Below, piece by piece: positions 705 to 25,026 of a stretch of 64,000 nucleotides of DNA. The stretch is from Candidatus Bathyarchaeota archaeon (lineage in GTDB: Archaea; Thermoproteota; Bathyarchaeia; Bathyarchaeales; Bathycorpusculaceae), in the NCBI GenBank assembly GCA_963775685.1, contig CAVZJV010000014.1, positions 2,368,001-2,432,000 of the forward strand, written 5' to 3'. Position 1 is the stretch's first letter. The number at the start of each line of letters is the position of its first letter. The position numbers and the translations under genes were made by a program. The notes below the pieces were generated by a model. It had not been told where the DNA came from. It was given only the letters and a program-made list of their open reading frames with translations, and ran no database searches.

Positions 705-928
705 AAGTTTACAAAGTAACTGGCAAAATCAACAAGCCAAATCTAAAGACTCCATTTGTTAGGGAACTCTTATCTGACAAGAGTGAGCATGCAGTGGAAA
801 AAGTCTACGCGGAAATAGGAAGCAGACACCGTGTGAAAAGACACCATATCAAAGTCATAAGCTCAGAAGAAATCTCTGTTGACCAAATCGAGAACCCCAT
901 TTTAAAGAAAATAGTAAGTGGGGAATAA
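701..928 (+). CDS. rpl18a: 50S ribosomal protein L18Ae/LX
   Basis: EHAVEKVYAEIGSRHRVKR motif; position between eIF6 and prefoldin. Confidence 0.93.
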   Translation: MKVYKVTGKINKPNLKTPFVRELLSDKSEHAVEKVYAEIGSRHRVKRHHIKVISSEEISVDQIENPILKKIVSGE

Positions 929-1373
929 GGTTTTGGCGCAGAGAGCTCAAGCCGAGGAAGAACTTCGCAGACTCAGTATGGAAATGCGTTACCTAGAACA
1001 AACGGCAGAAGCACTACAGCAACGTATAAGCATGGTAAACGCGGCTCTTACCGATATTAATTACGCTAACATGACGCTTGATGGTATTGAAAAAGAGAAA
1101 GAAAACTCTGAACTTCTCATACCAATTGGCGGTAGCTCTTACGTAAAAGTCAAGCTTGCAGACGCAAACAAAGTAATAATCGGCTTAGGTTCAGGCGTAT
1201 CAGTTGAGCAAACTCTTTCCCAGGCAAAAGCAACTCTTAAACAACGCCTAGATGAGCTCGAGAAAACTATGCATGCCGCCCAGCAACAGTTTAGCCAAGT
1301 GGCTGAGCGCATAAACTCTGGCAGAAGCAGACTAGAAACTTTGCTGGCGAGCGCACGAGAAGGGAAACAGTAA
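918..1373 (+). CDS. pfdA: prefoldin subunit alpha
   Basis: Coiled coils flanking LLIPIGGSSYV...VIIGLGSGVSVE hairpins; synteny. Confidence 0.93.
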   Translation: MGNKVLAQRAQAEEELRRLSMEMRYLEQTAEALQQRISMVNAALTDINYANMTLDGIEKEKENSELLIPIGGSSYVKVKLADANKVIIGLGSGVSVEQTLSQAKATLKQRLDELEKTMHAAQQQFSQVAERINSGRSRLETLLASAREGKQ

Positions 1374-1377
1374 TTCG

Positions 1378-2283
1378 ATGTTTGAGAAGCTAAGGTCTGG
1401 GTTTAAAGGCTTAGTAAACAAAGTAACAACAACCGAGCTTAAAGCTGAAAACCTAAATCCTATCTTATCAAATTTTAGAATGAGCCTTGCTGAAAATGAT
1501 GTGGCTTACCAGGTGGCAGATAAAATCTGCGATGAACTGGAAAAGCGTTTGGCGGGCGAGCAGGTTAAACGTTTAGATGACCGCAAAAAAATCGTCGAAG
1601 ATAACCTTAGGCAAGTTCTTTTGGATATTATGTTAACCAGCAAAAGAATTGACTTGCTAAAGTTAGCTGAAGAGAAACGTAGGAAAAAGGAACCGTTCAA
1701 ATTGATGTTCGTTGGCATCAATGGCACAGGAAAAACTACGACAATCGCCAAAGTTGCCCAGTTCCTTCGGGACCAAAGCTTCTCAGTGCTGCTTGCTGCT
1801 GCTGATACTTATCGTGCAGGTTCTATTGAGCAGTTAGAAGAGCATGGCAAACGTTTGGGTATGCGTGTTGTTAAGAGCATTTATGGCGGAGACCCTGCCG
1901 CTGTAGCTTATGATGCTGTTTGCCACGCGAAAGCCCATGGGATTAACATTGTTTTAATTGACACGGCAGGTAGGATGCAGACCAATCAGAACTTGATGAA
2001 TGAGCTTGTAAAGATTAAGCGTGTTGTTTGTCCAGATTTGACGGTTTTTGTTGTTGACTCGCTAATAGGAAACGATGCTGTTATGCAGGCGGAAGAATTC
2101 AACAAGGCAATCTGCATCGATGCAACAATCCTCACCAAAGTGGATGCCGATGTTAAAGGCGGTTCGGCTCTAAGCGTGACCTATGTGACGCAAAGACCGA
2201 TCTTGTTTATTGGCGTTGGGCAAACCTACAAAGATCTAGAGCTATTTAACCCTGAAAAGTTCGTTCACATGGTCCTAAGATAA
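1378..2283 (+). CDS. ftsY: SRP receptor GTPase FtsY
   Basis: GINGTGKTTT, DTYRAG, DTAGR, TKVDAD..GG motifs. Confidence 0.97.
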   Translation: MFEKLRSGFKGLVNKVTTTELKAENLNPILSNFRMSLAENDVAYQVADKICDELEKRLAGEQVKRLDDRKKIVEDNLRQVLLDIMLTSKRIDLLKLAEEKRRKKEPFKLMFVGINGTGKTTTIAKVAQFLRDQSFSVLLAAADTYRAGSIEQLEEHGKRLGMRVVKSIYGGDPAAVAYDAVCHAKAHGINIVLIDTAGRMQTNQNLMNELVKIKRVVCPDLTVFVVDSLIGNDAVMQAEEFNKAICIDATILTKVDADVKGGSALSVTYVTQRPILFIGVGQTYKDLELFNPEKFVHMVLR

Positions 2284-2285
2284 AC

Positions 2286-2675
2286 TTACGGTTCTTCCAA
2301 GCCGGATAGTTCGAAGCGGATTTTGTTAGGGTAAACCCAATATGCCTTGATGAAATCTTCAATAGCTTGGTCAACATCTATGGCATCAAAGAAATTAGTG
2401 AATTCGGCATCAATTCCATCAGGATTCTTTGACGTGAACAATTTGAGTTGAGCCAGGTATTCTTTTTTAGGTTGCAAATCTTCCATGGGTATGTTTTTGG
2501 GAATTTCTATGGTAAGAGGTAAATTAGTTAAAACGTCTATTGCGGCTGCTTTGCGGACTTTTTTGTTTATTGTATTTATGACTATTAGTCTTTGTTCGAT
2601 TTTTCGATAGTTCCAGTTAATATCCTGATTCATTGATGCTGACATATAAAATCCCTGTAAAAATAGTGCAAGCAT
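2286..2675 (-). CDS. hypothetical protein
   Basis: 129-aa ORF convergent with ftsY; no recognised motif; true start may be the internal Met (MSASMNQD). Confidence 0.6.
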   Translation of the reverse strand: MLALFLQGFYMSASMNQDINWNYRKIEQRLIVINTINKKVRKAAAIDVLTNLPLTIEIPKNIPMEDLQPKKEYLAQLKLFTSKNPDGIDAEFTNFFDAIDVDQAIEDFIKAYWVYPNKIRFELSGLEEP

Positions 2676-2687
2676 ATTATTTTTATG

Positions 2688-2980
2688 TTACTTCTTTAGT
2701 TCAACCACTAAGAGTTCTAGTGGTGATTGCCCAATGTTCTCAGCTTCATGAGACTGAGCGCTAAGAAAAATTACATCGCCATCCGCGAGGTCTAAAACAT
2801 CAGTTTTTCCCATAGTGGTCAGCTTCATTTTTCCGCTCATAAGCACAAAACCCCCATGGTCAGGCGCTGGTGCATTGCTGCTTTGTCTCCAGGTTCAAAA
2901 GAAACTTCGAACATATGTACATGGTCGTTCTCCTTTTTTATCTTGTAAAAGTTACTTGCAATCCTCCAAAGGGTCGCAAA
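2688..2980 (-). pseudogene. cupin-domain protein, frameshifted
   Basis: Manual translation: DPL/RIASNFYKIKKENDHVHMFEVSFEPGDKAAMH, frameshift near 2865, then PDHGGFVLMSGKMKLT...QSHEAENIGQSPLELLVVELKK*. Confidence 0.75.
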
Positions 2981-3518
2981 TATTCTCAGTTATCAAATCA
3001 ATTCACCAATTTTATGTTTAAGTTCAAAGGAATTAAGGCTGTGAGGTTACGTCTCTGCAGTCACAGGCACTTTAGTGCTCAAAAAAAACTAAACCCCTTA
3101 TAATGAGCACCGATTAAACCCGACCCCCCTCTATGGGTTTTGCAGAGTTTCTAATAGGCAACAAATAGGTAGCTAAGCGATATCTCTCGATAGTTTCAGC
3201 GTACCTTGATATTAGCCTTTAAATATGAATAACCGAAAAAACTTTAATCTAACATTACTGTATACTTATATTTGCAGAAGGAAAGATTACAAAAAGAGCG
3301 ATTGTTGTTTTATCAATAGTGGTCTTTGCATTATTCTGATAGCTGTTTTGTTTTTCGCAAACTCAGACTTTGCATTAACAAAGAAGTATGGACAAATGGT
3401 AACCTTATTCCACTGTAACAATTCCATCGTTGGGAAACGGAACAGACCATTATGATTTTTCCCTGAATTACACAAACACATAGTTTAAATTGACCTTAGA
3501 ATCCGAATACATCAAAAT

Positions 3519-3728
3519 TTATGATTCTTTTTTCCGTTTTGCTGGGTCACGCAGGTTCTGCACGGGGGAATCCGCGTTGAAGCCTAGACCAACTTGAGTG
3601 GTTTGTTTGTATTTTTGCTCGGCAAGTTTAGCTTTGCCTTCTTTGCTGCTCAACTCAACGCTATTCCCAAGTTTGTAGATGGTTCTGCCGATTCTGCGCT
3701 CTCCTCTTGTAGCAGTGCATCTTCCCAT
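3519..3728 (-). CDS. small basic hypothetical protein
   Basis: 69-aa ATG-started ORF, Lys/Arg rich. Confidence 0.45.
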   Translation of the reverse strand: MGRCTATRGERRIGRTIYKLGNSVELSSKEGKAKLAEQKYKQTTQVGLGFNADSPVQNLRDPAKRKKES

Positions 3729-3744
3729 TTTAATCTAACCTAAG

Positions 3745-4417
3745 TTAGACTTGTTTTGGTACCCTTTTAATTTTCTGTTCAAAAGAAACCTTTCCCTGCA
3801 ACGTTGTAGCTTTCGCTTCAAAACATGTTCTAAAACCGGCAAAGTCATCCCCATGAATGCACAGTTTTCTCAAGAACGTAATTCTTAGTAAACCTGCTTC
3901 TTAACCCCGCCAAGGTAACTATTACTCCCGTTTTCACCTCTGGCAATCCCAAACACTCTGCTGAACAGCAGATTTTCCTATTATTTTCTTGGACTGTTTC
4001 TGTGGATGTGAAACTGAGTAATGTACTGCCATAAGTAGGCAATGGCAGGGGCGGGTTATTTGCAGCAACTTTGGATTTGTTCTTTTGCTTGGCCGAGGAC
4101 CTAATTTGTGGGGACCCGCTTGATGGGGCGATGGATTTAACAGCAGTGATTTCTTCTGTCGATAGTTCTTCAAGCGTATTTGGGTACCCCATTTTTATTG
4201 CAACGACTTTGTTTAACTCAAACAACCCAGTGTTTATCCACGCTAACTTCGGGTCATCTATTCTGATGGAAAATGCGGTTAAAGTATTCTCAGTTTCTTC
4301 AACAAAGACACCTTTGGCTTTTATTTCGTATTTTTCAAATAAATCTTCGTTATTTACTGTAATGGTTTTAGGTGATTGAAAGTTTTGGTATTTCTTGTTA
4401 ACATCAATTGTCGACAT
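3745..4417 (-). pseudogene. phage late-control D / contractile injection system hub-like protein, short and frameshifted
   Basis: LFELNKVVAIKMGY..L....EITAV....PSSGSPQI and ECLGLPEVKTG.IVTLAGL.SRFT.NYVLEKTVHS; a +1 shift in a G run near 3850 restores DDFAGFRTCFE; AAGGAG upstream of ATG 4417. Confidence 0.6.
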
Positions 4418-7138: not shown

Positions 7139-8600
7139 TTATTTTCGTTGTCTTTTTTTATAGATGGATATGGTCGCGTTTATAGTTATCAAGGTGGTGG
7201 CTATGATGGTTGCGTAGAGAAGTGTTGAGTTTTCTTTTGGAGATGGTGGTTTTGTTGTTGAAGTAGCCTGCGGGGAGAGTGATGAAGGCGGTGATAGGCT
7301 TGGAGTTGGTAGGCCTTGGCGTGGGATTGGGTGTGGAAGATGGAGTTGATGCGGAGGGTTGTGTTGGGTTTGGTGTAGGGGTCGAAGTTGGGTTTGGGGA
7401 GGGCGATTTTCCAATAACATTGGCTCTAAGACTGTGGATTTCTCCGCTAAGAGAACAGAAGTAAAGCTCTTTTTGTTCATCTACTCCGAATGAAGAAATA
7501 TTGAGACTTGTATCAGCCAGCAGACTATTCATGGTCTTCGCACCTATACCGTATTGAAGCGCCCAAATTTTGCCTGAACCGTAATCGCCATAGATGTATT
7601 TTGAGTTAAGTCTCGCCAGGTTTGAGCCATGGTAAACATAGCCGCCGATAACCGCAATGCCTTCAGCGTGGCTGTGCTCCCACACAGGTAAATCCAATCC
7701 AACCTGACTCGCACTAGAATAAGTTAATGTGCCTTCCATTATGTTCCAACCGTAGTTTTTACCCTTTTCAACAAGGTCAATTTCTTCCTGCTGGTCTTGC
7801 CCCACATCTCCGACCCAAAGTCTTCCAGTCGGTGTATCGAAGCTAAATCGCCTGGGGTTGCGAAAACCGTAAGCGTAAATCTCCTCTTTATAGCCCGAAG
7901 GGTTGCCAAAGTAAGGATTGTCTGGAGGGATGTTGTAGTTTCGTCCTTGAGACGGGAAATCAACATCTATGCGCAAGATTTTGCCCAGCAGGGTCGAAAG
8001 GTCCTGAGCGTTTCCTAAGGGGTCGCCTCCCGAGTCACCATCGCCCAAACCAATGTAAAGGTATCCGTCGTCTCCAAACGCAATTTGTCCGCCTTTGTGG
8101 TTAGAAAATGGCTGATTTATCTCAAGTAGAACCAGTTCGGTATTTTTTAGTGCCTGGTTGGGATTGTTCTGAGAGACGGAGTACCGGGCAATCACTGTTC
8201 GAAGTGGATTCTCAGCCACGTAATCAATGTAGAAATATCCATTTGATGCGTAGTTAGGGTGGAATGCAAGACCGAGAAGCCCTTGTTCGCCACCAAACAA
8301 AACCCGTGTGCTAATGTTGAGAAAAACGGTGGATTCTGCAACGGTTGGCGCGTTTCTCAAACACACGAATAACCCCTGCCTGCCTCAATCACGAAAAGCC
8401 TGTTTGTTCCGTCACCTGGGTTAGCTATTCCAACCGGCTGATTAAAGACTATGTTGGGGAAGGCCAAATCAACCAAGTACGCGTTTTGAGTTTGGCCCGA
8501 AAGGTCAGGGATATTCCAAGAAAGAAAAAAGACAACAAAGCCCAAAACCACAAGGAGAGATATGACAAAGTATAGACTCTTTCGCTTGATATTTTTTCAT
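7139..8600 (-). pseudogene. PQQ-dependent glucose/sorbosone dehydrogenase family surface protein, multiply frameshifted
   Basis: GEQGLLGLAFHP, NHKGGQIAFG.DG.LYI, YAYGFRNP, DVGQ..EEID, GKNYGW; signal peptide (8357-8600), P/T linker and C-terminal TM lie in different frames; shifts near 8595, 8385, 8355, 7312. Confidence 0.85.
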
Positions 8601-14908: not shown

Positions 14909-14969
14909 CAAAGCTTTTCAAAATGTATATGCGTTATCGAAGCATCTCTTGTTTAGCTAATCAACAAGG
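14909..14969 (+). repeat. ~64-bp dispersed element, degenerate copy 1
   Basis: CAAAGCTTTTCAAAATG...GTTTAG-CTAATCAACAAGG; core starts 48 nt after CAA. Confidence 0.45.
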
Positions 14970-15052
14970 CTTGTTAAAAAAATAAAGTGGCTTTCATCAG
15001 TTGGCCTTTGCAACGGATTCGTGAACGATTTTGGATCGCGTGTTTATTGCAA

Positions 15053-15481
15053 CTATTGTGCGAGCTTTGAGAGGCAATTCGACCGTTGAGGGCGCAATGG
15101 TGTTGTTTGTCTTCGCGGGTCTTCTATTATGGGTAGTGCTTGTGTTAGTTCTCGGAAATACTTCAGCACAATTATTCCACGCTGGGTAATTGCGAAAACT
15201 ATGCGTTCCTTTTCGACAATTCGTTTTTCGATTAACTCTTGTTTGATTAGAAAGTCTATGTGTTCATTGAGTATGTTGCAGTTGATATTGGCTTTGTACA
15301 TGATATGTGTCAATTTTAATGGTCCTCTCTGACCCAAAACGTTGAGGACATCGATGTGCATCTCTAGTTTTGATCGTCTCATCTTTGAGCACCTTTCCAT
15401 CTTAATCACTTGTATATATCTACATGTTATGAAAAAGAATGCTATAAGCTTTGCTATTTTACTCTTGTTTAATTCAAGCAA
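15053..15481 (-). CDS. winged-helix DNA-binding protein (HTH_45-like)
   Basis: MRRSKLEMHIDVL..L...GPLKLTHIMYKANIN...ITQRG; true start likely the internal Met. Confidence 0.88.
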   Translation of the reverse strand: MLELNKSKIAKLIAFFFITCRYIQVIKMERCSKMRRSKLEMHIDVLNVLGQRGPLKLTHIMYKANINCNILNEHIDFLIKQELIEKRIVEKERIVFAITQRGIIVLKYFRELTQALPIIEDPRRQTTPLRPQRSNCLSKLAQ

Positions 15482-15655
15482 TTTTGCTTTTTATTAGCAA
15501 AATAAATATTTATATTAAAAAATGCATTTAATACGATATAAATAAAGTAAAATTTGTATTATCTCTAACATGATTGTGATTGTGCCGCGCCTACTACAAT
15601 ATTTAATATATTATTCAAAGGAATCATAGATTCTCTTGGCTCAAGGGGGCGGGAA

Positions 15656-15919
15656 ATGGGTATGACAAAAAACAACATTCAAAAAAGCAACTTCATTTTG
15701 AGTAAAGGGCGGACCGACAATTTTGTTGTACATAAAACGAACATGCCAATTATCAAGTGCGCATGCGGCTTCAAAATTTTGGTTGTACCCGATTTGAAGG
15801 CCATGAACTGCGCGATAAAAAATCATGTAGCTCAGCACAATAAATCGTCCTCAGAAAGGTTGACGGATTTCTTAACAGAGCAGGTTCTAATTGTGACAAG
15901 CAAAATAAATTTTGCTTAA
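15656..15919 (+). CDS. small Cys/His metal-binding hypothetical protein
   Basis: IKCACGFKILVVPDLKAM..AIKNHVAQH (CxC...HxxxH). Confidence 0.7.
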   Translation: MGMTKNNIQKSNFILSKGRTDNFVVHKTNMPIIKCACGFKILVVPDLKAMNCAIKNHVAQHNKSSSERLTDFLTEQVLIVTSKINFA

Positions 15920-15928
15920 ACATACAAA

Positions 15929-15992
15929 CAAGGTCTTCCAAAATCTGAGTTAATAGTGAAAAATCCTTCTCGTTTCGGCTAATTATCAGAAC
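15929..15992 (+). repeat. ~64-bp dispersed element, copy 2
   Basis: CAAGGTCTTCCAAAATCTGAGT...CTAATTATCAGAAC; core 50 nt after CAAG. Confidence 0.7.
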
Positions 15993-16073
15993 CTAAAAAG
16001 AAATAAATAGAATAATAATCATGTCGGTTGTTCCTGTTCCGCATTTTTGAGGCCGGTCTTTGATTGAAGGAAT

Positions 16074-16238
16074 TCAGAATTTTTTATGCGTTAAAACAAA
16101 GACATGTACGTTCATTATTGCAAAGCCAATCATCCACAAGACTATGGCGTAAAACATTAAATTGAAATATGCGGGTACACAGCCTAAACTAAGAAATATG
16201 AGCGCTGAAAAGCCTAAGGTTTTTTGTTTGATGTCCAA
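16074..16238 (-). CDS. 54-aa two-TM microprotein
   Basis: Manual translation MDIKQKTLGFSALIFLSLGCVPAYFNLMFYAIVLWMIGFAIMNVHVFVLTHKKF*; TTG start after AAGTGAT. Confidence 0.5.
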   Translation of the reverse strand: MDIKQKTLGFSALIFLSLGCVPAYFNLMFYAIVLWMIGFAIMNVHVFVLTHKKF

Positions 16239-16373
16239 ATCACTTCGATAGTCTGCTTGCTTTTCAGCGAAAATAAGTTTTATGAATTTAAAATATTGAT
16301 ATTAAATATAATAGCTGCTGGGTTTGCTTAAATGACTTTTATGGTCTTTGCCTAGAATTTAAGTTAAATGCGT

Positions 16374-16667
16374 TTAGCAGAAAATATTTTCAAAATTTCT
16401 ATAGGCTATAACATATAAGCAAGCTGGCCGTTCGCGAGAAAAGGTTACCTGGTTTTTTTGATGCCTTCTATAAAAGAAAAATAAAGAGATAACCCCAACC
16501 ACAATTGTCATAAACAGCAATATTAGCGGTATAGTGATGGAAATACCAGTTGGTGAAGACAATACAGTCGGTGCCTTAACAGAAATAACAACCGGTTGGG
16601 TAAGCGGATGTTTGTCAACATTATTTTGGTCAATTAGGAATGTTCCTTTTCCACAATAGTCGTCCAA
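16374..16667 (-). pseudogene. C-terminal remnant of a NosD/beta-helix surface protein
   Basis: IDQNNVDKHPL motif followed by TM anchor and basic tail; N-terminal bulk missing. Confidence 0.5.
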
Positions 16668-16957
16668 TAGTCATAATTGAAGCGAGAAGTATTGAAACTA
16701 CTATGTTTGCGATTATCAACTTCTTACGATTGTCCAACCTTTGACACTTAATAGTAAAATAAATATCCTTCACTAAAGATATCTTGACTCGATTAAGTCA
16801 AGGTTTGTAGATGATTCTTTATTGGATTAATGTACAAATAATGTTCTTTATGTTATCTCTAGCAAACCCGTCTTTAATCGTGCTCCGTCGACAAAACTAT
16901 TGATGGCTCAAACTTCTGAGCGTTAAGTTCATTATGAAATGTCCTGCGAGATAATGG

Positions 16958-17899
16958 TCAAAGTTCATAATCGGTTTTCCACACTATTAGAAATGAAGGC
17001 ATCAGGTAATGCTTTAGCTATGGCAAAACTTCCTCTTCAACCTGTGCAATGTGATGGGATTATCCGCCCAGAGTTTATGTATTTTAATTTTCAACCGTCT
17101 GGTCAATTCTATTTTCGTTCTCTTTTCCAGCAAAGTGAAAGCCACTTATTACTGCGTAGACCTCTCTGTTTTCAGTAATCTTCCGGGCATAATGAATGGT
17201 GTTGATTATGCCTGCATGGGCGCGCCCTGAGATGATTATCAAGCCTTTGCCTCTAATCCAGATTACGAGAGCACGATCATCCAAAATCAGGTCAGATTTC
17301 CATGATCCATCTGCGTAGGCGCAATGCTTTGAATATCCTTTTTCGAAGTTGTTGATGCGTGGTATCTCTCCTGTGATAAGTGCCATACCATCTGCAATGA
17401 GAATGGGTTGTTCCGTTTGGACAAGGTTTGCTCCCTCTATGTTCTCTCTCAAAGGAGAGTTCGGATAACTTTCACTTCGCAATCTTGGTTCGAGGTTCCT
17501 CTGACCTTGAACATGTCTGAGCACAATAATCGGAGTATTCTTCTTGTTAATTGGTTTTAAATGCGGCAAGGAGCTCCCGATATGGTCCCAATGACCATGA
17601 GACAATACGATAAAGTCTACTTCCCTTAATTTTAGGTCCAGGTGAGCAACGTTTTTAAATATGCTTGTGGGATTGAGCCGGTGGCAAATAGTATTTGGAT
17701 TTTTCTTTCATTTTGGGTAGTAATTAGCATTGAAAACCCATTGTCAGCAAAAAGAAGAGTTGAACCTTTTTTTTGCCAATTGTCTCAGAGATTGCAAGCT
17801 TTCTTTATTGGGGCTGGAAAGCAAATCTGCAGAGTTATCAACTAAGCTGATTAGTTGCACGTTATCGACGGGCTTTATTGCAATTTTTTGGCTAACCAT
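16958..17899 (-). pseudogene. MBL-fold metallo-hydrolase, disrupted
   Basis: MVSQKIAIKPVDNVQLISLVDN at 17899; SHGHWDH, LITGEIPR, DDRALV, SG.AHAGIIN, GFHF, PSHCTG* across several frames. Confidence 0.85.
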
Positions 17900-18060
17900 G
17901 GTTTTACATGACCGTTTTCCTAGCGGGGGTTATTCAATGGGCACCCATTGCATTTATTAGTTGAGAATTGATTGCAAGAATTACAATCGACGCCACAACT
18001 CTTTGTAGTCATATTCTTGTTTTGTGTTTTTTTAGGCAGCTTACTCTCTAAATGTTGTCG

Positions 18061-18082
18061 GTTTTTTCTTATGATTAGAAAC
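18061..18082 (+). repeat. dispersed element, core-only copy 3
   Basis: GTTTTTTCTTATGATTAGAAAC. Confidence 0.6.
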
Positions 18083-18189
18083 TATAATAAACAAACATGA
18101 TTCAAGCGGCTTGTTGTTATGGCGCCCAATCCTTAGAAGATCTTTCAAACCAATAATCATAAAAGCATAACTCGCCTTCAAGGGGTTAT

Positions 18190-18657
18190 ATGCAGTTAGC
18201 TAGAGACAGCGGGAGAATCACGGCCGCCTATTCGGTTGAGACGGTTTGCCCTTGGTGCAAGATAAGCAAACTAAGGTACAATTTGGAGTTCCAAGTAGCA
18301 ACGATCGAAAAGGGGCAAATCATTGACTCGAGCCATTTAATCAAAAATGTATGTTCACACTGTTTGACGGTCTGCGAAGAACCGCCCTCGATGGATTTCT
18401 TGTGTGCCAAATGTGGTCAACTCACGCTTTACACTCAAGAAGACCCCAGCCTAATCGAACAGAGCCTTTTCAAGAAGCTATTTTTAGGCACCGGATTCGC
18501 TGATTTCTATGAACAGCTGCTTTTAGGAGGGCAAAAGGAGGGCAAGCGGTTCTGCCTACCTTGCATGTACAAGATTTGGCAGAAGTTTCTGAAATGTCCT
18601 GCTTCGTTGCAAGAAGAGTTGGAAAAGCCAAAACCCGAATATGCTCTGAAGACATAA
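18190..18657 (+). CDS. multi-CxxC zinc-finger hypothetical protein
   Basis: CPWC, CSHC, CAKC, CLPC; AAGGGG upstream. Confidence 0.65.
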   Translation: MQLARDSGRITAAYSVETVCPWCKISKLRYNLEFQVATIEKGQIIDSSHLIKNVCSHCLTVCEEPPSMDFLCAKCGQLTLYTQEDPSLIEQSLFKKLFLGTGFADFYEQLLLGGQKEGKRFCLPCMYKIWQKFLKCPASLQEELEKPKPEYALKT

Positions 18658-18662
18658 TCGCC

Positions 18663-18725
18663 CAAAATCTTCAATTTTCTAAGGGTATAGAGTAATGTCT
18701 TTATGGTTTAAGCTAATCATCAGAA
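18663..18725 (+). repeat. ~64-bp dispersed element, copy 4
   Basis: CAAAATCTTCAATTTTCTAAGGGTATAG...GTTTAAG-CTAATCATCAGAA; core 50 nt after CAA. Confidence 0.7.
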
Positions 18726-18833
18726 TTTATAAAATAGAATAGTTATTTTTGGATTTGAAGTATCCTGTAGCGTCTAATCCGTGGAAAGCCTTTAGGGTAA
18801 CACATCAACAAAAATGTTGGATGTGTGGCTTTG

Positions 18834-19121
18834 TTAGGGCTTTGCGAGAGTTATTTCCATCGTGGAAACCATTCTGGATCTGTTCTCGCCTTCTCTTGGT
18901 GGCATTTCTACGGTGCCGATTGCTATGTTTGTCACTTTGAGGTCTTTTATGAAGCGGTTTCTTGCGATTTCTGCGCAGTCAACTGCGGTTGTGATCGCTT
19001 GGCCTCGAGCTTTTAGGGTTATTTCCTTTTGAGCTCCAGAGAACGCGGTTATGATGGCAAGTACATAGCTCATTGGTGGTTTATTTCCGACGAAAATTAC
19101 GTCATTAGATTTTTCAGTCAT
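18834..19121 (-). CDS. albA: DNA/RNA-binding chromatin protein Alba
   Basis: IFVGNKPPMSYVLA, ITLKARGQAITTAVD.AEI.RNRF, VSTMEITL. Confidence 0.97.
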   Translation of the reverse strand: MTEKSNDVIFVGNKPPMSYVLAIITAFSGAQKEITLKARGQAITTAVDCAEIARNRFIKDLKVTNIAIGTVEMPPREGENRSRMVSTMEITLAKP

Positions 19122-19189
19122 ATTCTTTTCACTCTGAATTTTAATGGTAGCATCAATTAAATAGTTACCGCCGATTCAGTAACGGTTAC

Positions 19190-19253
19190 CAAGACATTAC
19201 AAAATTTTGGGGGTATGGTAGGAAAAACCCGAGTTTTTTCTTATGATCAGAAC
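19190..19253 (+). repeat. ~64-bp dispersed element, copy 5
   Basis: CAAGACATTACAAAATTTTGGGGGTATGGTAG...GTTTTTT-CTTATGATCAGAAC; core 50 nt after CAAG. Confidence 0.75.
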
Positions 19254-19383
19254 CAATAAAATACAAATAATTTTTTTGGAGTTGACTTATTCTATATGTG
19301 TCAATCCGTAAAAAGGTCTTTTGCCTCGATTACCCATTCAGTCCTTTACATAGCCAATAAGAAATAAAAAAAGCTCGACACAG

Positions 19384-19788
19384 TTACTTTTTAGCATAGA
19401 CTTTAAAAGTGTATTCGCCTGTTGCCATATTGTAGGTAGCTTCTGACCAGCCCTTGATCGTGTTGATGTATGCCAGCTTTTGAGAAGGCGTCTGAAATAT
19501 CAGGGTTCCCTCAATCTTTCCGATTGGAGTGGGGTCTACGAGTTTTCCGTCTGCTTTTCCTGCTACGAAGATAGGCTCGCCGTTGCTGAAGATGATTGAC
19601 TTTAGATCAAGTTCGCTTGTTCCTCCCGGCTTCATGAGAATGTTGTGTGTAGACATGATTTGTCCTGTTATCTTGCCGTTGACTTTTCAGGCGACAGTGA
19701 TGTCGAGTCTTACGCCTTCTGAACTGAATTCCTTAATATTGACTGAACTGGTGTTCTCTTTTCCTTCAAAAAGTAGTTCTCTTTCCAA
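19384..19788 (-). pseudogene. hypothetical protein with one in-frame TGA
   Basis: TTG 19788 MERELLFEGKENT...LDITVA*KVNGKITGQIMSTH; TGA at 19687-19689, in frame with the 90-aa ORF. Confidence 0.65.
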
Positions 19789-19918
19789 AAGTAGTTTCAG
19801 CGTAGATTGTAGGCTGAACCAGCCAAGTTAAGCGTTTGTGATTGTTGTTTGACACTTACAAAAGTAATTTGTCCTTGCTATCTTACGCCTAAACAATTAG
19901 GCTGTATCTGCGCATTCA

Positions 19919-19985
19919 GAAGGCCCTCAAGTTTTAAGAGTATGGTAGCAAAAAGGCTTTACAGGTTTTTTCTTATCATCCGAAC
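19919..19985 (+). repeat. ~64-bp dispersed element, copy 6
   Basis: GAAGGCCCTCAAGTTTTAAGAGTATGGTAGCAAAAA...GTTTTTT-CTTATCATCCGAAC. Confidence 0.7.
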
Positions 19986-20459
19986 ATAATAAAACAACTA
20001 AATAAAAATCAAGAAATTTATCTCTTTACCCCTTCTTTCGTGGAAGACATTGTCGCCAGAAAACTCGCGTATCTGTGCAAAAAGCCAGCCAACTTTAACT
20101 TGGTGGCTCCTCAAACAAGCATCAACGCGTCCGTTTTAACCTGTTCACCTTCCTCTCACGTTGCTCATATGCATTGCGAGTTCCTCTCCGATGACATAGT
20201 TTAGTTTGGACGAGCCCTATGAAGAACAAATACTCAGCATCACGGGCTTTTGGGCTGACGGGAATCTATTTTGAAAGTTTTGTCCCATTATTCCTTGGTC
20301 TGTCTGAGACTTCTTGTCCGTATCCATCCTTCTTGACTTTCAGCCTTCTTATCTTGAATAGCCTTCCTATATTTCGACAAGGTTTTTTATGGTGAATAAG
20401 TAAGGTGCAGCAAACAGAAAAATAGACTATAGTCATAAAAAAAAGATTGTAAGTTTTGT

Positions 20460-20537
20460 TTATTCTTCATCTTCACAGTCTTCGCAGTCGCAATCTTCAT
20501 CGCAACCGCAGTCATCGTCTTCTTCTTCAAATGTCAT
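20460..20537 (-). CDS. 25-aa acidic Cys-rich micro-peptide
   Basis: MTFEEEDDDCGCDEDCDCEDCEDEE*; TATTTAA at 20570-20576, GGTAGG at 20546-20551, T8 tract at 20437-20444. Confidence 0.6.
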   Translation of the reverse strand: MTFEEEDDDCGCDEDCDCEDCEDEE

Positions 20538-20894
20538 TATACAAACCTACCGTATGGATTAATTACGAGTTAAATAGATGTTTCGGAAGCTATCCATTTT
20601 CAGGAACGAAAATCTACGTGTGCAGTCGTGGAGCTGGGGCTGGGAGTTGAACACTTCATCTGTGGAGATTTCTCTCACATGCTCTCTTTTTTCACTCAAA
20701 GAGCTAACGGAATTGGATGAATCATGTTACACGGGGCTACACAAGAACTTATTTTTGCAGAACAAATCCGAAGTGCCATTTTTATTATCAGACTACGCAC
20801 TCTACTTCAGGATAGATCTTGAAAAAAATTTTTATCTGAGCAAATCCCTATCTTCTCCTTCTATAGTTGATAATGAGCAAAGAGATGACTCACT

Positions 20895-22370
20895 GTGAGC
20901 AGCAGATGTGAAGTATTGGTGATAGGGGGTGGCGTGATTGGCTGTGCGATCGCAAGAGAACTATCAAAATTTAAAATCGAAACAGTGTTGGTGGAGAAGG
21001 AAACCGACGTTGGTTCTGGGGTTAGCAAAGGCAACAGTGGAGTCCTTCACACCGGTCTTTACTATCCGAGGGGAAGCTTGAAGGCTAAACTGTGTGTTGA
21101 AGGGCGACTGATGTTTCCAGAGTTGGCAAAGCAACTTGATGTACCTTTCAAACTCTGTGGAAAACATGTAATTGCCCGAACAGAAGAGGAACTCGAAGAC
21201 TTGGAAAGCTTAAAAGCAGTGGGGGAAGGAAACGGAGTCAAAGAATTAAACATAATCTCTGGGGAAGAACTGAAAAAGCGAGAACCCCACTTGGACGCTC
21301 TCTATGCGTTATATTCTCCTGTGGCTGGAATCGTTCCCCCTTATCTTTTTACGATTGCCTTAGCCGAGAATGCCCTAAACAACGGCGTGAAAGTTCAGGT
21401 CAACACCCAAGTGTCCGCGATAAAACAAGTAAATAGCGGTTACAAAGTAACAACAAATCAGGGAGTCTTTCATGCAGATATCGTTGTGAATAGTGCAGGT
21501 CTCTTCGCAGACAGAATCTCCGCTATGGTAGGGATTGATAATTACAAACTCTATCCCTGTCGTGGCGAATATCTCATCATTGACAAGAATTGCCACGACC
21601 TAATCAACAGTATGGTCTATCCGGTGCCGCCAAAAATTGCAGGAGTCTTGGGGGTTCATCTCACGCCCACATTAGATGGAAACATTTTGATTGGACCTAG
21701 TGAAGAATTCATCAACGCGCGAGAAGACACAAGAACAACCAAAGAAAAGATTCGGCAACTAATTAAGGGGGCGAAGAGTTTACTTCCGTCTATCCCCCTA
21801 AACCAAGTTATCTACGGCTTTGCTGCAGTGAGGTCTAAGATTACTCCACCAGAGGAGAAGGGATCTCGTGACTTTATCATCCAAGAAGACGTTAAAAACT
21901 TCATCAATATGATAGGAATGGAGTCTCCTGGTCTCACGTCCTCTCCTGCCATCGCAAAATTGGTTGTTCAAATGATCAAAGAAAAAATGGATTTGGAAGA
22001 AAAAACAGATTTTAATCTTATTCGTAGAAGAACAATTCCTTTTAGCGAAGCATCAAGAACAGAGCAAACTTCTTTGATTAAAGTAGATCCCGCATACGGC
22101 GAGATCGTGTGTAGGTGTGAACATGTATCCAAACGGGAAGTCTTAGATGCGTTAAACAACCCAATTTCAGAAAAAACAATTTCCACTGTGAAATACCGTA
22201 CCCGAGCAGGTATGGGCAGATGCCATGGGGGCTTTTGCTTACCAAAAATTGTGGAAATTCTAAAAGAAGAATATGGGCTGTCTCCCGAAGAGATTAAGTT
22301 GAAGAATCTAGATTCGCCTCTGTTCATCGGTGAAACTAAAGTCCTGAGGGAGAGTAAAAAAAGTGAGTGA
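20895..22370 (+). CDS. FAD-dependent oxidoreductase, glycerol-3-phosphate dehydrogenase/LhgO-like, with C-terminal BFD-like [2Fe-2S] domain
   Basis: GGGVIG, SKGNSGVLH, SPGLTSSPAIA, CRCE...RAGMGRCHGGFC. Confidence 0.9.
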   Translation: MSSRCEVLVIGGGVIGCAIARELSKFKIETVLVEKETDVGSGVSKGNSGVLHTGLYYPRGSLKAKLCVEGRLMFPELAKQLDVPFKLCGKHVIARTEEELEDLESLKAVGEGNGVKELNIISGEELKKREPHLDALYALYSPVAGIVPPYLFTIALAENALNNGVKVQVNTQVSAIKQVNSGYKVTTNQGVFHADIVVNSAGLFADRISAMVGIDNYKLYPCRGEYLIIDKNCHDLINSMVYPVPPKIAGVLGVHLTPTLDGNILIGPSEEFINAREDTRTTKEKIRQLIKGAKSLLPSIPLNQVIYGFAAVRSKITPPEEKGSRDFIIQEDVKNFINMIGMESPGLTSSPAIAKLVVQMIKEKMDLEEKTDFNLIRRRTIPFSEASRTEQTSLIKVDPAYGEIVCRCEHVSKREVLDALNNPISEKTISTVKYRTRAGMGRCHGGFCLPKIVEILKEEYGLSPEEIKLKNLDSPLFIGETKVLRESKKSE

Positions 22371-23616
22371 ATTGTCATCTCAAGATGTTGATTTGGTTGT
22401 GATAGGTGCTGGTCCAGCAGGGCTAGCTGCAGCCATCAGTGCAAAGAAAAATGGCCTTCAAAACTTGGTTATCATAGAAAGAAACGGTTGGCTAGGTGGC
22501 ATCCTTCCTCAGTGTATTCATGATGGTTTCGGTCTTGAACTCTTTAAAGAACAAATGACTGGTCCGGAATACGCTCAAAGATACGTCGATGAACTGAATA
22601 GATTAAAAATCCCGTATATGCTTGACAGCATGGTGCTTGAGGTCACTTCTGAAAAAAAGGTGTTCGTTGCTAGTCCTAAAGGTCTGTTTTATTTTGGCGC
22701 CAAAGCCATAGTTCTTGCTATGGGGTGTCGTGAGCGAACCCGTGGACAGATTTACATTCCAGGAACAAGACCTGCAGGAGTGTATACTGCTGGTGTAGCT
22801 CAGAATCTCATTAACTTGAAGAATCTAATGGTTGGCAAAGACGTTGTTATTCTCGGTTCGGGGGACGTAGGTTTGATTATGGCTCGTCGGCTTACTCTAG
22901 AAGGCGCTAAAGTCCATATGGTAGTTGAGATTCTTCCTCACACCAATGGTCTGCCGCGAAACATTCAGCAGTGCTTAATTGACTATGACATTCCTCTTCT
23001 TCTCTCACACACCGTCACCGAAATCCATGGGCAGAACAGGGTTGAAGCAGTCACAATCTCTCCCGTAGACAAGGATTTGAAGCCAATCAAGGGAAAAGAG
23101 CAAAATATTACTTGTGATACACTCCTTCTCTCTATAGGTTTAATTCCAGAAAATGACCTATCCAAAAATTGTAATGTTAAACTCAGTCAAGTTACTGGAG
23201 GAGGTATCGTCGACGAAAATCTTGAAACTTCTATGTCTGGAGTTTTTGCGTGTGGGAACGCCCTTCATGTTCATGATATAGTGGATTTTGTTACTCTTGA
23301 AGCGGAGAAAGCGGGAAAAAGCGCAGCGGAATACGTTCTTGGCAAGATTCAAAAGGTGGCGAGAATCACTATAGAGGCAGGTAATAAAATCCGGTATGTT
23401 TTGCCCCAAAGCATCCGCTGTGGCGCTGACATCGAGTTGTCGATTCGTGTGACCTGTCCCGGAGAAGATGTGGAAGTTGGGTTCTTTGATGGAGAAACGC
23501 TGATAAAGACAGTAAAGTTACGTAAAGTTCATCCTGCTCAGATGATCAAGATAAAACTGAAAGGAAGCGAAACCAGCGCTATTAACTCACTAAAAGTTGA
23601 GGTTTTAAGGAAATGA
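22363..23616 (+). CDS. NAD(P)/FAD-dependent oxidoreductase (partner subunit)
   Basis: GAGPAG, LGGILPQCIHDGFG, AMGCRER, GSGDVGLIMARR, ACGNALHVHD. Confidence 0.9.
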   Translation: MSELSSQDVDLVVIGAGPAGLAAAISAKKNGLQNLVIIERNGWLGGILPQCIHDGFGLELFKEQMTGPEYAQRYVDELNRLKIPYMLDSMVLEVTSEKKVFVASPKGLFYFGAKAIVLAMGCRERTRGQIYIPGTRPAGVYTAGVAQNLINLKNLMVGKDVVILGSGDVGLIMARRLTLEGAKVHMVVEILPHTNGLPRNIQQCLIDYDIPLLLSHTVTEIHGQNRVEAVTISPVDKDLKPIKGKEQNITCDTLLLSIGLIPENDLSKNCNVKLSQVTGGGIVDENLETSMSGVFACGNALHVHDIVDFVTLEAEKAGKSAAEYVLGKIQKVARITIEAGNKIRYVLPQSIRCGADIELSIRVTCPGEDVEVGFFDGETLIKTVKLRKVHPAQMIKIKLKGSETSAINSLKVEVLRK

Positions 23617-23987
23617 AGAAGGAATTGATCTGTATCGGCTGTCCTATGGGCTGTTATCTCAGTGTTGATTTCGTCGGGACAACAATACGTGACGTTAGCG
23701 GAAACCGATGCAAAGTAGGGCTGGAATACGTGGAAAAAGAGATTTCCAATCCTGAACGAACCCTAACAACCACTGTGAAAGTTAAACACGGTCATCTTCC
23801 TTTAGTTAGCGTTAGAACAAACAGACCAATACCTAAAAGTAGAATCTTAGACGCTATGAATTTGTTGGCAAAAGTTGAAGTAGAAGCACCCATCAAAATC
23901 GGAGAAACGATCATCCAAAACATCTTCAATACAGGAGTTAACATAGTGGCTACAAAAGGCATCTCAAAAAAGACAAGCTGGTGTTAG
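23613..23987 (+). CDS. DUF1667 family Cys-containing protein
   Basis: LICIGCPMGC, GNRC, P.RTLTTTV. Confidence 0.9.
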   Translation: MKKELICIGCPMGCYLSVDFVGTTIRDVSGNRCKVGLEYVEKEISNPERTLTTTVKVKHGHLPLVSVRTNRPIPKSRILDAMNLLAKVEVEAPIKIGETIIQNIFNTGVNIVATKGISKKTSWC

Positions 23988-24203
23988 TTTGTGGCTAATC
24001 AAAGTAATCAATTGGAGAAAAGGTGCACATCTATACTCTAAGAATGATGAAATTGTTAACTACTCACTTAGGGCATTAAACTAAATATGAAGTTACAAAT
24101 GACCTTTTTACTTTAAAAAAATACTTATTGAAATCAGAGAGACAGATAAAGATTTAGAATTTCTAATAAAGAATCCATAAGGGTTGCAACCACGACCATC
24201 TAT

Positions 24204-24216
24204 AAAATCATCAGAA
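24204..24216 (+). repeat. dispersed element, partial core copy 7
   Basis: AAAATCATCAGAA. Confidence 0.4.
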
Positions 24217-24436
24217 AATTTCCGATAACTTTACAAAATTTTTACAATAAATAATTTAGAGGCTGACTCTTTCAATTGGGGCCAATCGATGTGAGGCCTT
24301 TGTCAAGTGCAGTGTTTCTGGTTTGGAAAACATTTTAAAAAGGGTTTTTGCAGCTAGATTGCCCATAATCCTCATGCGAGGTGTTCCAGGCTAGCTGGTT
24401 TGCCCTGGCCTTTTGCTTAGGCTTCTTATAATTTAG

Positions 24437-24595
24437 TTATTTGGGTTTTAGGGGGGCGGCTTTGTTGATCCATGTTTTTATTGCTTCTTGGGCCGCTTTG
24501 GATAAGTCGCCTTTTTTGCCTCCGAATTGCTCGAAGGTTTTTAATCTGAATTGTTTTTCTAAGTCGTCTGAGATGTCTATGTTGATGCGGCCCAT
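24437..24595 (-). CDS. ribbon-helix-helix (CopG/Arc-like) protein, 52 aa
   Basis: Manual translation MGRINIDISDDLEKQFRLKTFEQFGGKKGDLSKAAQEAIKTWINKAAPLKPK*. Confidence 0.8.
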   Translation of the reverse strand: MGRINIDISDDLEKQFRLKTFEQFGGKKGDLSKAAQEAIKTWINKAAPLKPK

Positions 24596-24715
24596 TTTTT
24601 GTCACTTGTTTTTGCTGGTTGGATGTTGTTGTGGTAAGCGAGTAGTCAATTTTTGTTTTCGGTTTTTGTGTTTGTCATGTTTTTTCCCTTTAAGATTCGC
24701 TTATTCACATTAGTA

Positions 24716-24755
24716 TATAAGTGCATACGCACTTATAAGTGTATGTGTTTAAGTG
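24716..24755. promoter_or_regulatory. candidate RHH operator
   Basis: TATAAGTGC-ATAC-GCACTTATA inverted repeat (24716-24737), overlapping CACTTATAAGTG palindrome, three direct TAAGTG boxes, upstream of the RHH gene. Confidence 0.5.
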
Positions 24756-24811
24756 TGTAAAATGTCTGGATCCTGCAACGTACGCTGTTATAACGCAAAG
24801 AGGTGGGGTGC

Positions 24812-24877
24812 CAAGACCTCCAAAATCTGGGTCCATTAAGAAGAGAGGTCTTCCGCCTAAAATCTAATCATCAGAAC
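24812..24877 (+). repeat. ~64-bp dispersed element, copy 8
   Basis: CAAGACCTCCAAAATCTGGGT...CTAATCATCAGAAC; ends about 77 nt from the tRNA-Cys 3' end. Confidence 0.75.
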
Positions 24878-24953
24878 ATACTGCGCAACTGACGGCACAA
24901 AGTTATTCAGAAAAACGGAAATAATCCCGCGAAAGCATATGATTCAAAAAATG

Positions 24954-25026
24954 AGCTGGGGATGGGAATTGAACCCATATAGAGCAGCTCTGCAGGCTAC
25001 CGCCTGAACCGTTCGGCCACCCCAGC
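24954..25026 (-). tRNA. tRNA-Cys (GCA)
   Basis: Acceptor GCTGGGG/CCCCAGC, anticodon loop CTGCAGA, T-arm ATGGG-TTCAATT-CCCAT, U discriminator; no intron. Confidence 0.95.

Follow-up and report, generated by a model that had tools for sequence, protein, structure and literature searches.

Gene-cassette arrays have so far been known essentially as integrons, with one recombinase family acting on one kind of folded site, the attC site, whose ends carry the motifs GTTRRRY and RYYYAAC. Mosaic temperate phages swap modules by recombination at short conserved intergenic linkers, and prokaryotic MITEs (miniature transposable elements with inverted repeats) such as the Correia elements, like the doublets of repetitive extragenic palindromes (REPINs), are short intergenic elements with inverted arms and possible promoter or terminator activity. 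Two further systems offer a close comparison: archaeal integrons with the cassette arrays of integrons and of clusters of attC sites lacking integrases (CALINs) (Ghaly et al. 2022, PMC9668308), and the tandem or decayed (cryptic) elements integrated at archaeal tRNA genes (Krupovic et al. 2019, PMC6563490). Here we analyze a 64,000-nucleotide stretch of a Candidatus Bathyarchaeota genome (contig CAVZJV010000014.1, positions 2,368,001 to 2,432,000; “the window”), in which co-oriented copies of a repeat of about 150 bp divide the region from 14909 to a tRNA-Cys gene into small gene modules. Our leading reading, held tentatively and just short of an even chance, is that these elements are junction repeats of mobile gene modules, which are gained and lost in Campbell fashion by recombination in the interior of the repeats, probably guided by homology or microhomology. 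We found no earlier description of such arrays in the parts of the literature that were searched.

The likeness to integrons and CALINs, as far as the consulted portion of that account goes, lies in the layout: tandem, co-oriented repeats resembling recombination sites and less than 4 kb apart divide short, unrelated, interchangeable modules, the modules are shared among arrays, and most arrays have no adjacent integrase. The spacing expected of integron sites is found here, with co-orientation at 50:2 and a median distance of 689 bp. The parts are different. The consensus ends are ACCAAGGCCTT and AAGGCCTTGGT and carry no attC motif; the centre is the most conserved part, whereas that of attC is variable; and no conserved fold corresponds to the conserved single-strand fold of attC. 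Integron genes are expected to be mostly co-oriented and promoterless, but those in our arrays point either way (33:34 on the right of the repeats, 33:32 on the left) with promoters of their own, there is no single crossover point, and the long repeat is confined to one genus. The integron integrase IntI was not found beside the arrays, in a test of which the IntI-specific extra domain was not part. The integron-like array proposed in a preliminary description of this region holds up as to its cassette outcome, while attC motifs, a conserved fold, IntI and a single crossover are all missing, and none of the molecular criteria tested places the arrays among the integrons. A globally abundant class of uncultured archaea here arrives at the same outcome, with co-oriented repeats between small interchangeable modules that arrays and species share, by way of different parts.

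With the tRNA-integrated elements, insofar as the available part of their description allows comparison, the window shares a position at tRNA 3′ ends, integrase remnants, a duplicated tRNA 3′ fragment and a cargo of small winged helix–turn–helix, RHH and zinc-finger genes. The internal 150-bp repeats, by contrast, are not derived from a tRNA and divide the island into units of one to three genes, and no such internal repeat was found in the consulted part of the description of those elements (PMC6563490). Phage linkers resemble the repeat in that exchange points lie in conserved intergenic sequence, modules have independent histories and breakpoints vary; they differ in that here one long, structured and strictly co-oriented repeat stands at almost every module boundary, the arrays are chromosomal, and the repeat was not found on viral contigs.

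The repeat itself is clearly distinguishable from chance. The core pattern CTWATNATYMGAA occurs six times in the window, on the + strand each time, against a mean of 0.09 in dinucleotide-shuffled versions of the window (0 of 100 shuffles get to six). Genome-wide, the same kind of pattern gives 12 matches, all on the + strand; judged by eye, nine have the left motif noted in the preliminary description, one is a right-part-only copy at window position 18068, and two are chance-like. A profile hidden Markov model (HMM) of 153 consensus columns, trained on the copies of this genome and iterated on it, finds 19 copies in the genome (16 on the + strand of C14, two on its − strand and one on C5), and with nhmmer it finds seven in the window, on the + strand only and all within 15927–24882. 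Four are full copies, at 15927–16072 (HMM columns 4–152, E 3.8e-23), 18660–18805 (E 7.7e-25), 19187–19328 (E 1.4e-24) and 19919–20063 (E 3.1e-26). Two are right parts: one at 18053–18157, comprising T-tract, core, A/T tract and right arm (columns 46–153, E 2.2e-15), and one from the core onward at 24206–24303 (columns 63–143, E 1.3e-5). The seventh is a left part ending just past the core, at 24810–24882 (columns 5–79, E 1.2e-15); the copies at 24206 and 24810 are the left and right boundaries of a small RHH module. At E≤1 the window gives just one other match, that of copy 18053 to itself on the reverse strand (18064–18144, E 0.027), so the conserved blocks of the window hold no copy, as had been noted from the letters alone.

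An eighth copy had been listed at 14909. It occupies 14909–15045 (+), at the upstream boundary of a module with an HTH_45 and a Cys/His gene, and is missed by nhmmer even with filters off. Its colinear local alignment to the consensus over columns 4–132 scores 39, against 19.8 ± 3.3 for shuffles, and neither any of 500 shuffles nor any of 50 other pieces of the window matches that score. Because of this score, and because the position is where synteny with paralogous arrays at our loci L001 and L002 predicts an upstream copy, we take it for a repeat copy that has decayed. The eight copies originally listed accordingly stand as seven significant ones and one apparently decayed, all on the + strand, in an array that ends at tRNA-Cys(GCA) (24953–25026, − strand; ARAGORN, Rfam tRNA 55.7 bits). 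Copies 15929 and 18663 begin 10 and 5 nt past + strand stop codons and are followed by the ends of − strand genes, which bears out the remark that two copies lie between convergent 3′ ends. The unit of about 64 bp first described is real, but it is only the left part of the repeat, and conservation goes on for about 85 nt more.

In its full extent the repeat has two inverted arms of about 35 bp flanking an asymmetric centre, which is made up of a 15-bp quasi-palindromic core and a TATA-like A/T tract. The left arm is laid out as AAGGYCTTCC-AAAATYTGG-..-TATAGAGG, then a second AAGGTCTT dyad; along the consensus these are AAGGCCTTCC in columns 6–15, AAAATTTG in 16–23, TATAGAGG in 29–36 and GGTCTTTC in 43–50. 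The centre follows with a T- or A-tract (columns 51–58), the core TCTWATCATCAGAAC (consensus TCTTATCATCAGAAC, columns 59–73), ATATAAAAT (74–82) and an A/T-rich stretch (83–100), and the right arm, ending CCAATTCGTGAAAGGCCTTTG, takes up columns 101–141. What lies beyond the unit first described is ATATAAAAT, the A/T tract and the right arm, an imperfect inverted copy of the left one; since the arms are imperfect inverted repeats, the HMM also gives weak reverse-strand matches to the repeat's own copies. Each repeat has three AAGGYCTT dyads. Between-copy identity is about 55–77% per segment; the mean identity in the core is 0.77, and the centre is the best-conserved part of the repeat.

Evidence for our leading reading comes from the separate histories of the two halves of a copy. 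The best partner of the left part (columns 6–50) is also the best partner of the right part (columns 101–141) in two of 97 full copies, and these two are each other's partner. Many pairs of copies are 88–98% identical on one side and 40–70% on the other, and the correlations of pairwise identity between repeat segments range from −0.04 to 0.31. The module with HTH_45 and Cys/His genes at L001 and L002 illustrates this: identity is 44–68% left of the first core, 88–96% from the first core across both genes and the left arm of the next repeat to that repeat's core, and 50% after that. Similarly, the RHH module of the window and its counterpart at L003 are 93% identical over 564 bp, in a block that begins about 20 nt after copy 24206 and ends at ...CAGAACATA, the sequences being unrelated beyond. 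By eye, from aligned rows, the repeat L002_6828 at a tRNA-Thr gene has a left arm like that of L019_7643 and a right arm like that of L001_7061. On these comparisons a copy is shown to be a chimera, its left ~50 bp belonging to the module on the left and its right ~40 bp to the module on the right. Each half travels with the module that it adjoins, which a module-boundary model predicts and a transposing unit does not.

Consistent boundaries are one matter, and a consistent crossover point is another. In 36 pairs of copies linked on one side only, we located the change point with column-specific background identities, and 25 of these points fall in columns 43–58. Blocks linked on the left stop at columns 43–51 in 21 of 31 pairs, which is the second dyad, GAAAGG/TCTTTC, and the five blocks linked on the right begin at columns 46, 76, 85, 100 and 106. 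Most recent is a duplicate of 946 bp, 99.9% identical, that two arrays in a single genome share; one of its ends is at column 44/45, in the middle of the second dyad, and the other lies outside any repeat. Other pairs break at or just past the core (about columns 66–76), near column 97, or at 100–124, and the ends of stringent BLAST blocks fall at columns 9–45 on one side and mostly at 100–141 on the other. Overall, the homology breakpoints are spread over columns ~44–106 with no single crossover point, and a crossover at the core, as first proposed, is not borne out.

Incomplete copies break near the core in part of the cases. Away from contig ends, five of 16 left parts end at columns 76–84 and four of 14 right parts start at 51–58, while a fifteenth right part, window copy 24206, starts at column 63. 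Two modules, the RHH module of the window and a DUF5752 module at L035, have flanks resembling attL and attR, with core plus right part on one side and left part plus core on the other. Around the unit that the two half-repeats and the DUF5752 gene make up at L035 there is also a direct repeat of about 30–40 nt (GGATTTT..GTAGTCTCAAACGAAG; L035:7290–7330 and 7940–7975), whose copies are not equally far from the two cores. A search for the empty site of the L035 module gave no contiguous version, the flank being conserved only through the neighbouring gene.

The arrangement of copies is as ordered as their structure. Across 25 loci in 12 genomes, neighbouring copies less than 5 kb apart have the same orientation in 50 cases and opposite orientations in two, in agreement with the co-orientation originally reported, and the start-to-start spacing has a median of 689 bp and a range of 241–4390 (n = 50). 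The copies are grouped in arrays and not dispersed; an even spread in random orientation, which would have spoken against recombination sites, is not what we see. The copies bound interchangeable modules: those with HTH_45 and Cys/His genes, a 145-aa protein, a DUF5752 protein, Alba, RHH, a nitroreductase and a zinc-finger protein all recur across arrays and genomes with changed neighbours, and the same modules are found at non-orthologous loci (at tRNA-Cys, at tRNA-Thr and beside an SMC gene). The earlier statement that cassette genes come in either orientation also holds. The gene to the right has the same direction as the repeat in 33 cases and the opposite one in 34, and the gene to the left in 33 and 32; each gene family, however, keeps to one direction, and over 11 families 47 of 50 members have the majority orientation.

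How modules would move between arrays is the point at which the explanations part. Under junction-repeat exchange, two co-oriented repeats would recombine in their interiors and loop out a circle with one complete repeat, and this circle would recombine with any resident repeat and so insert its module; such Campbell-style insertion and excision would leave all repeats co-oriented. Modules are units of one to three genes with their own promoters, in either orientation, and recur across arrays and species. For this exchange we slightly favour guidance by homology or microhomology in the conserved centre over a dedicated single-site recombinase, because the breakpoints are spread widely and half-repeats form at core-like sequences. 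Several points weigh against junction-repeat exchange. The centre of the repeat seems to be linked to neither side, which a simple single crossover does not predict, and gene conversion may be at work instead. Segment identities of ~55–77% are low by the standards of classical homologous recombination, and a homology-guided exchange would have to rely on the 15–25 bp of conserved centre. The compared genomes are all of different species, so that gain or loss of a single module could not be caught among them. Neither an excision circle nor an empty site was observed, the reads consulted being one public DNA run with 0.06 of the sampled words, which assembled to six short contig pieces with no joints; no RNA run was listed for the region. 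Finally, the promoter, terminator and protein-binding roles given to the repeat are readings of its letters. A dedicated recombinase encoded elsewhere and acting on the core TCTWATCATCAGAAC or on the AAGG/YCTT dyads, with the arms as accessory arm-type sites in the manner of a complex attP, would make the system an analogue of integrons, and we consider this a good deal less probable. Co-orientation of 50:2 and a fixed polarity toward tRNA 3′ ends (in the window, L019, L029, L031 and L003) fit such an enzyme, as does the layout of a complex attachment site, in which three copies of a single dyad motif surround the quasi-palindromic core; half-repeats retain the core (left parts end at 76–84 in five of 16), the two modules with attL/attR-like halves have it on both sides, the youngest breakpoint is exactly at a dyad centre, and tyrosine recombinases are plentiful in the genome (20 PF00589 matches). 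Yet no recombinase is consistently adjacent, the integrases on the array side are fragments of ~30% mutual identity that evidently used the tRNA 3′ end as attachment site, the genome (97% complete) has neither a serine recombinase nor a Y1 transposase, none of nine pattern matches on viral contigs was confirmed, and different pairs break at 44/45, ~66–76, ~97 and 100–124. That these arrays are an independent archaeal gene-capture system, in which a distant dedicated recombinase would use the AAGGYCTT dyads and the palindromic core to insert and excise circular modules of one to three genes lying in either orientation, and so a functional analogue of integrons that arose separately in Bathyarchaeia, is in our view correspondingly doubtful.

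Movement need not be a property of the repeat at all, if it is a regulatory or architectural module, a unit of promoter, operator and terminator bound by proteins such as HTH_45, RHH or Alba-type ones. On that account, which we think unlikely, the unit would belong to a family of integrated elements, arrays would arise by descent, and mosaic halves by gene conversion. The TATA-like ATATAAAAT directly follows the palindromic core, 12 co-directional right-flank genes start at most 60 nt from the arm, too near for a further promoter to fit in, a repeat precedes the starts of two integrase genes by 6 and 110 nt, gene 3′ ends come within ~0–30 nt of the arms with T-rich tracts both ways, and HTH_45 ranks second among the cargo families. 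With half of the flanking genes directed into the repeat (34 of 67 to its right and 33 of 65 to its left), however, a promoter role that is purely directional fails; the occurrence of the same modules at tRNA-Cys, tRNA-Thr and SMC loci needs movement and not descent, and the distribution is patchy within the genus (28 of 61 genomes). A MITE, also offered as an alternative in the preliminary description, would be a non-autonomous transposon with terminal inverted repeats of ~35 bp that inserts itself into intergenic accessory DNA. The repeat does share with Correia-type MITEs and REPINs its size, inverted arms, place near gene ends and possible promoter or terminator activity; it is non-coding and multi-copy with weak reverse-strand self-matches, and its species distribution is patchy. 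What separates it from them is that its halves are inherited separately (the same best partner in 2 of 97 copies, so that it is not passed on as a unit), and that copies are arrayed and co-oriented 50:2 where random orientation and dispersal would be expected. Inspection of 18 copies by eye showed no target duplication, and the homologous flanks gave no empty site. No partner insertion sequence with the same ends was found, either. Derivation from a local IS1182-like element was rejected, as its ends are unrelated, and insertion of the REPIN/RAYT (REP-associated tyrosine transposase) or strand-specific IS200 type was rejected on 0 matches to the Y1 transposase (PF01797) in the genome, control genomes giving matches. 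The MITE reading is largely refuted, and we regard it as very improbable.

Junction-repeat exchange by host recombination, if true, would be a clear natural case of linker-mediated modular exchange in a cellular chromosome, and a dedicated enzyme, if that were true, would mean that gene capture was invented independently here, and might serve as a new tool for recombination. On either reading the 150-bp model is a searchable marker for accessory-gene hot spots in Bathyarchaeia and provides a set of testable junctions.

Why the arrays lie where they do appears to be a separate matter from how modules are exchanged. Several arrays adjoin the 3′ ends of tRNA genes, the right arm being turned toward the tRNA, and this polarity is the same in the window, L019, L029, L031 and L003. 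The distance to tRNA-Cys is 71 nt in the window, 21 nt in genome G001, 34 nt in G023 and 2.65 kb in G002; a tRNA-Thr(GGT) gene anchors arrays in G016, at 31 nt, and in the window's genome, at L002, and a single copy lies 657 nt from tRNA-Ala at L003. Arrays also adjoin an SMC gene in two genomes (L001, L030). The arrays at tRNA-Cys in four genomes, and those at tRNA-Thr in two, carry differing sets of modules. The two tRNA-Thr arrays, from two species, share their start (an integrase fragment, a repeat and the HTH_45 module) and differ in the remaining modules, and one of them has an extra Alba module ahead of the HTH_45 module.

The window itself retains traces of integration. The 3′-end remnant of a tyrosine integrase gene, ending ..KLFRKRK and a stop codon and with a 1-nt insertion relative to integrase ends near tRNA-Cys in the genus, occupies 24882–24924 (+); at this right junction the core of the repeat abuts the last codons of the integrase gene and overlies a similar stretch of that gene. 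An older integrase 3′-end remnant at 20595–20652 (+) is followed by a duplicated 3′ fragment of tRNA-Cys (20631–20652, 20 of 22 identical; direct repeat D19), the only tRNA-Cys fragment in the window and 4.3 kb from the real tRNA. We take 20595–20652 to be a probable relic attachment site, and the segment 20653–24952, with the RHH module and an oxidoreductase operon in it, has the look of a younger integrated element whose integrase is almost entirely lost. Among 26 loci with tRNA-Cys inspected by eye in the genus, at least six have an integrase gene end (..KLFRKRK and stop) about 30 nt from the tRNA, and several others carry remnants of one. Further fragments resembling tRNA 3′ ends (GGTTCAAATCC...CCA-type) lie beside half-repeats at L005:4860–4940 and L035:7180–7215, which suggests that these too may be relic attachment sites. 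We also considered the left junction of the window's RHH module as an integrase remnant, and the alignment was not convincing. Because of the integrase remnants and the duplicated tRNA-Cys fragment, which are marks of tRNA-integrating elements, the region can be read as several decayed tRNA-integrated elements stacked one on another, and what they attached to was evidently the tRNA 3′ end and not the repeat. The anchoring proposed earlier is real, with tRNA-Cys in at least three further species and tRNA-Thr in two, but it is more simply explained by decayed tRNA-integrating elements, whose fixed integration polarity can account for the fixed polarity of the arrays toward the tRNA. The arrays would accordingly sit at tRNA-linked integration hot spots among decayed integrase-bearing elements.

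A recombinase of the arrays' own is harder to place. The preliminary description had it encoded elsewhere and expected linkage to a tyrosine recombinase; the 20 PF00589 matches in the genome all fall outside the window, as that view requires, but no conserved recombinase stands beside the related arrays, IntI-like or other, and the expected linkage is not seen. The integrase genes beside repeats at L001, L020 and L035 are fragmented and ~30% identical to one another. At L001 a tyrosine recombinase pseudogene (L001:11074–12279, that is G000:C14:2157074–2158279) lies between the repeat array and the SMC gene; it has an N-terminal zinc ribbon and at least two frameshifts, and its RHW..GH..Y motifs are legible across three frames. 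An adjacent integrase was rejected as the array recombinase, given this pseudogenized gene and the diverse fragments on the array side. Elsewhere in the genome, an open reading frame (ORF) for an XerA-like tyrosine recombinase of 267 aa was found at C14:891211–891657. No serine recombinase was found in the genome.

The repeat is patchily distributed within its genus, which belongs to the soil archaea. In a first cross-genome scan with a sequence-only covariance model at E≤1e-3, 11 of 24 other genus genomes matched, and none of 16 genomes from other families of the order did; in a larger draw, with the same model at E≤1e-6, it is present in 28 of 61 genus genomes (27 of 60 besides the window's own). 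The model scan that had been suggested for the genome and its relatives has in this way returned 19 copies in the genome and a repeat limited to the genus, and the pooled set from the genome and related loci comprises 136 unique copies, among them 98 full ones, 20 left parts and 17 right parts. In a two-motif pattern scan of a collection of named species, 26 of the 80 loci listed were confirmed by the HMM, 25 of them from Candidatus Bathyarchaeota or Bathyarchaeia and one from an “uncultured archaeon”, and any of these loci with two or more copies has all of them on one strand; no bacterial pattern match in that collection was confirmed. Viral contigs gave nine pattern matches and no confirmed one, with a pattern of low sensitivity that recovers only 13 of 81 known copies, and on this low-sensitivity result a viral or plasmid origin was set aside.

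The functions that the repeat may have between genes were read from its sequence. The three AAGGYCTT dyads and the palindromic core are putative sites at which dimeric DNA-binding proteins, HTH_45 regulators for example, would bind, and ATATAAAAT with the preceding AGAAC is a putative box of the TATA/BRE (TFB-recognition element) type. Of the right-flank genes, 12 that share the repeat's direction begin no more than 60 nt from the right arm, and two integrase genes begin 6 and 110 nt beyond a repeat, which fits a promoter; gene 3′ ends lie within ~0–30 nt of the arms, and T-rich tracts run in both directions. That half of all flanking genes are directed into the repeat speaks against its being a simple promoter or terminator. 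The repeat probably works also as an intergenic boundary module and would persist for that reason. A structured RNA is not indicated: RNAalifold gives 0 pairs both on 13 copies and on 102 copies, and the one plausible stem, in which the first and second AAGGYCTT pair with each other, has 81.3% pairing where column shuffles have 81.2%, with no covariation and with 192 of 500 column shuffles as high. Its pairing potential comes from the repeated quasi-palindromic motifs and not from selection for a hairpin. A small RNA gene (C/D box, H/ACA or hairpin RNA) was rejected for want of an Rfam match, a consensus fold and stem covariation; at gathering score Rfam finds rRNA and two tRNAs only in the window and nothing matching the repeat, and the reverse strand of the repeat has UGAUGA-like letters with, by eye, no D box. 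Two tracts of the repeat occur in complementary versions among copies, namely columns 24–28 (GGGGGT or ACCCCC, e.g. window 19209–19214) and columns 51–58 (GGTTTTA, or GGAAAAT or CCTAAAA, e.g. L001:10379–10385), and no partner change for them was seen elsewhere in the repeat.

The modules of the window are small and varied. The first, at 15053–15919, consists of a winged-helix HTH_45 gene (15053–15481, −; Pfam 8.2e-14), with paralogous modules at L001 (76% DNA identity) and L002 (78%), and a divergent gene for an 87-aa Cys/His protein (15656–15919, +). This protein belongs to a multi-copy family, with 10 matches in the window's genome and as many as 13 elsewhere; 39 of 61 genus genomes have it, and in arrays its gene is usually the divergent partner of an HTH_45 gene. 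It was rejected as a marker of the system, as it occurs also in genomes without the repeat. The second module, at 16074–17605 (−), holds three ORFs of 54, 97 and 173 aa with no Pfam match at E≤0.01. The third (18190–18657, +) encodes a 155-aa zinc-finger-like protein whose homologues in metagenome contigs are 55–57% identical and are again followed by the repeat in two of four loci, so that the pairing of gene and repeat would survive down to that level of protein identity. An Alba paralogue (18834–19121, −; Pfam Alba 2.3e-19) follows, a module also found between two repeats at L019, and after it a 90-aa hypothetical protein (19384–19656, −) with no Pfam match. The oxidoreductase operon within the younger integrated segment (20895–23987, +) has DAO/BFD, Pyr_redox_2 and DUF1667 matches (Pfam 3.1e-73, 2e-32 and 1.5e-32). 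The small RHH-type gene lies at 24426–24605 (−), and its paralogue L003:4813–5001 matches RHH_6 at 6.6e-5. The labels given to the modules at first sight stand for HTH_45, Alba and the oxidoreductase operon by Pfam and for RHH through its paralogue, and the metallo-beta-lactamase and NosD labels found no Pfam match at E≤0.01. A 25-nt inverted repeat centred on CACTTATAAGTG, at 24700–24753 upstream of the RHH gene and kept in the paralogous L003, is likely an autoregulatory operator.

Over all arrays, the cargo with a recognizable family includes HTH_45 (second commonest, with 11 members), the Cys/His 87-aa family, RHH, Alba, Lrp-type ligand domains, histidine kinases, nitroreductase, hemerythrin, metallo-beta-lactamase and AIPR, together with many proteins that have no family match. 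It is a cargo typical of archaeal mobile DNA and accessory genes.

Two observations were made away from the arrays' own modules. The arms are loosely similar to origin recognition boxes (ORBs), and a replication-origin reading was rejected, as the repeats linked to orc1 in this genome differ: they are of the form TCCAGTAGAA..GGGG, and for that region the repeat HMM gives E-values no better than 0.37. Two such repeats lie at G000:C14:1875570 and 1876013, in a region of 36% G+C upstream of an orc1/cdc6 gene, and this region with its ORB-like boxes is likely a replication origin. At L003:75–3532 (G000:C14:1464075–1467532) there is a gene cluster with Pfam matches to COX1 (3.2e-55), FixO (6.7e-32) and cbb3-type cytochrome c domains and weak ones to FixS and FixP_N. 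The cluster resembles a cbb3-type oxidase, which one would not expect in a genome of Bathyarchaeia.

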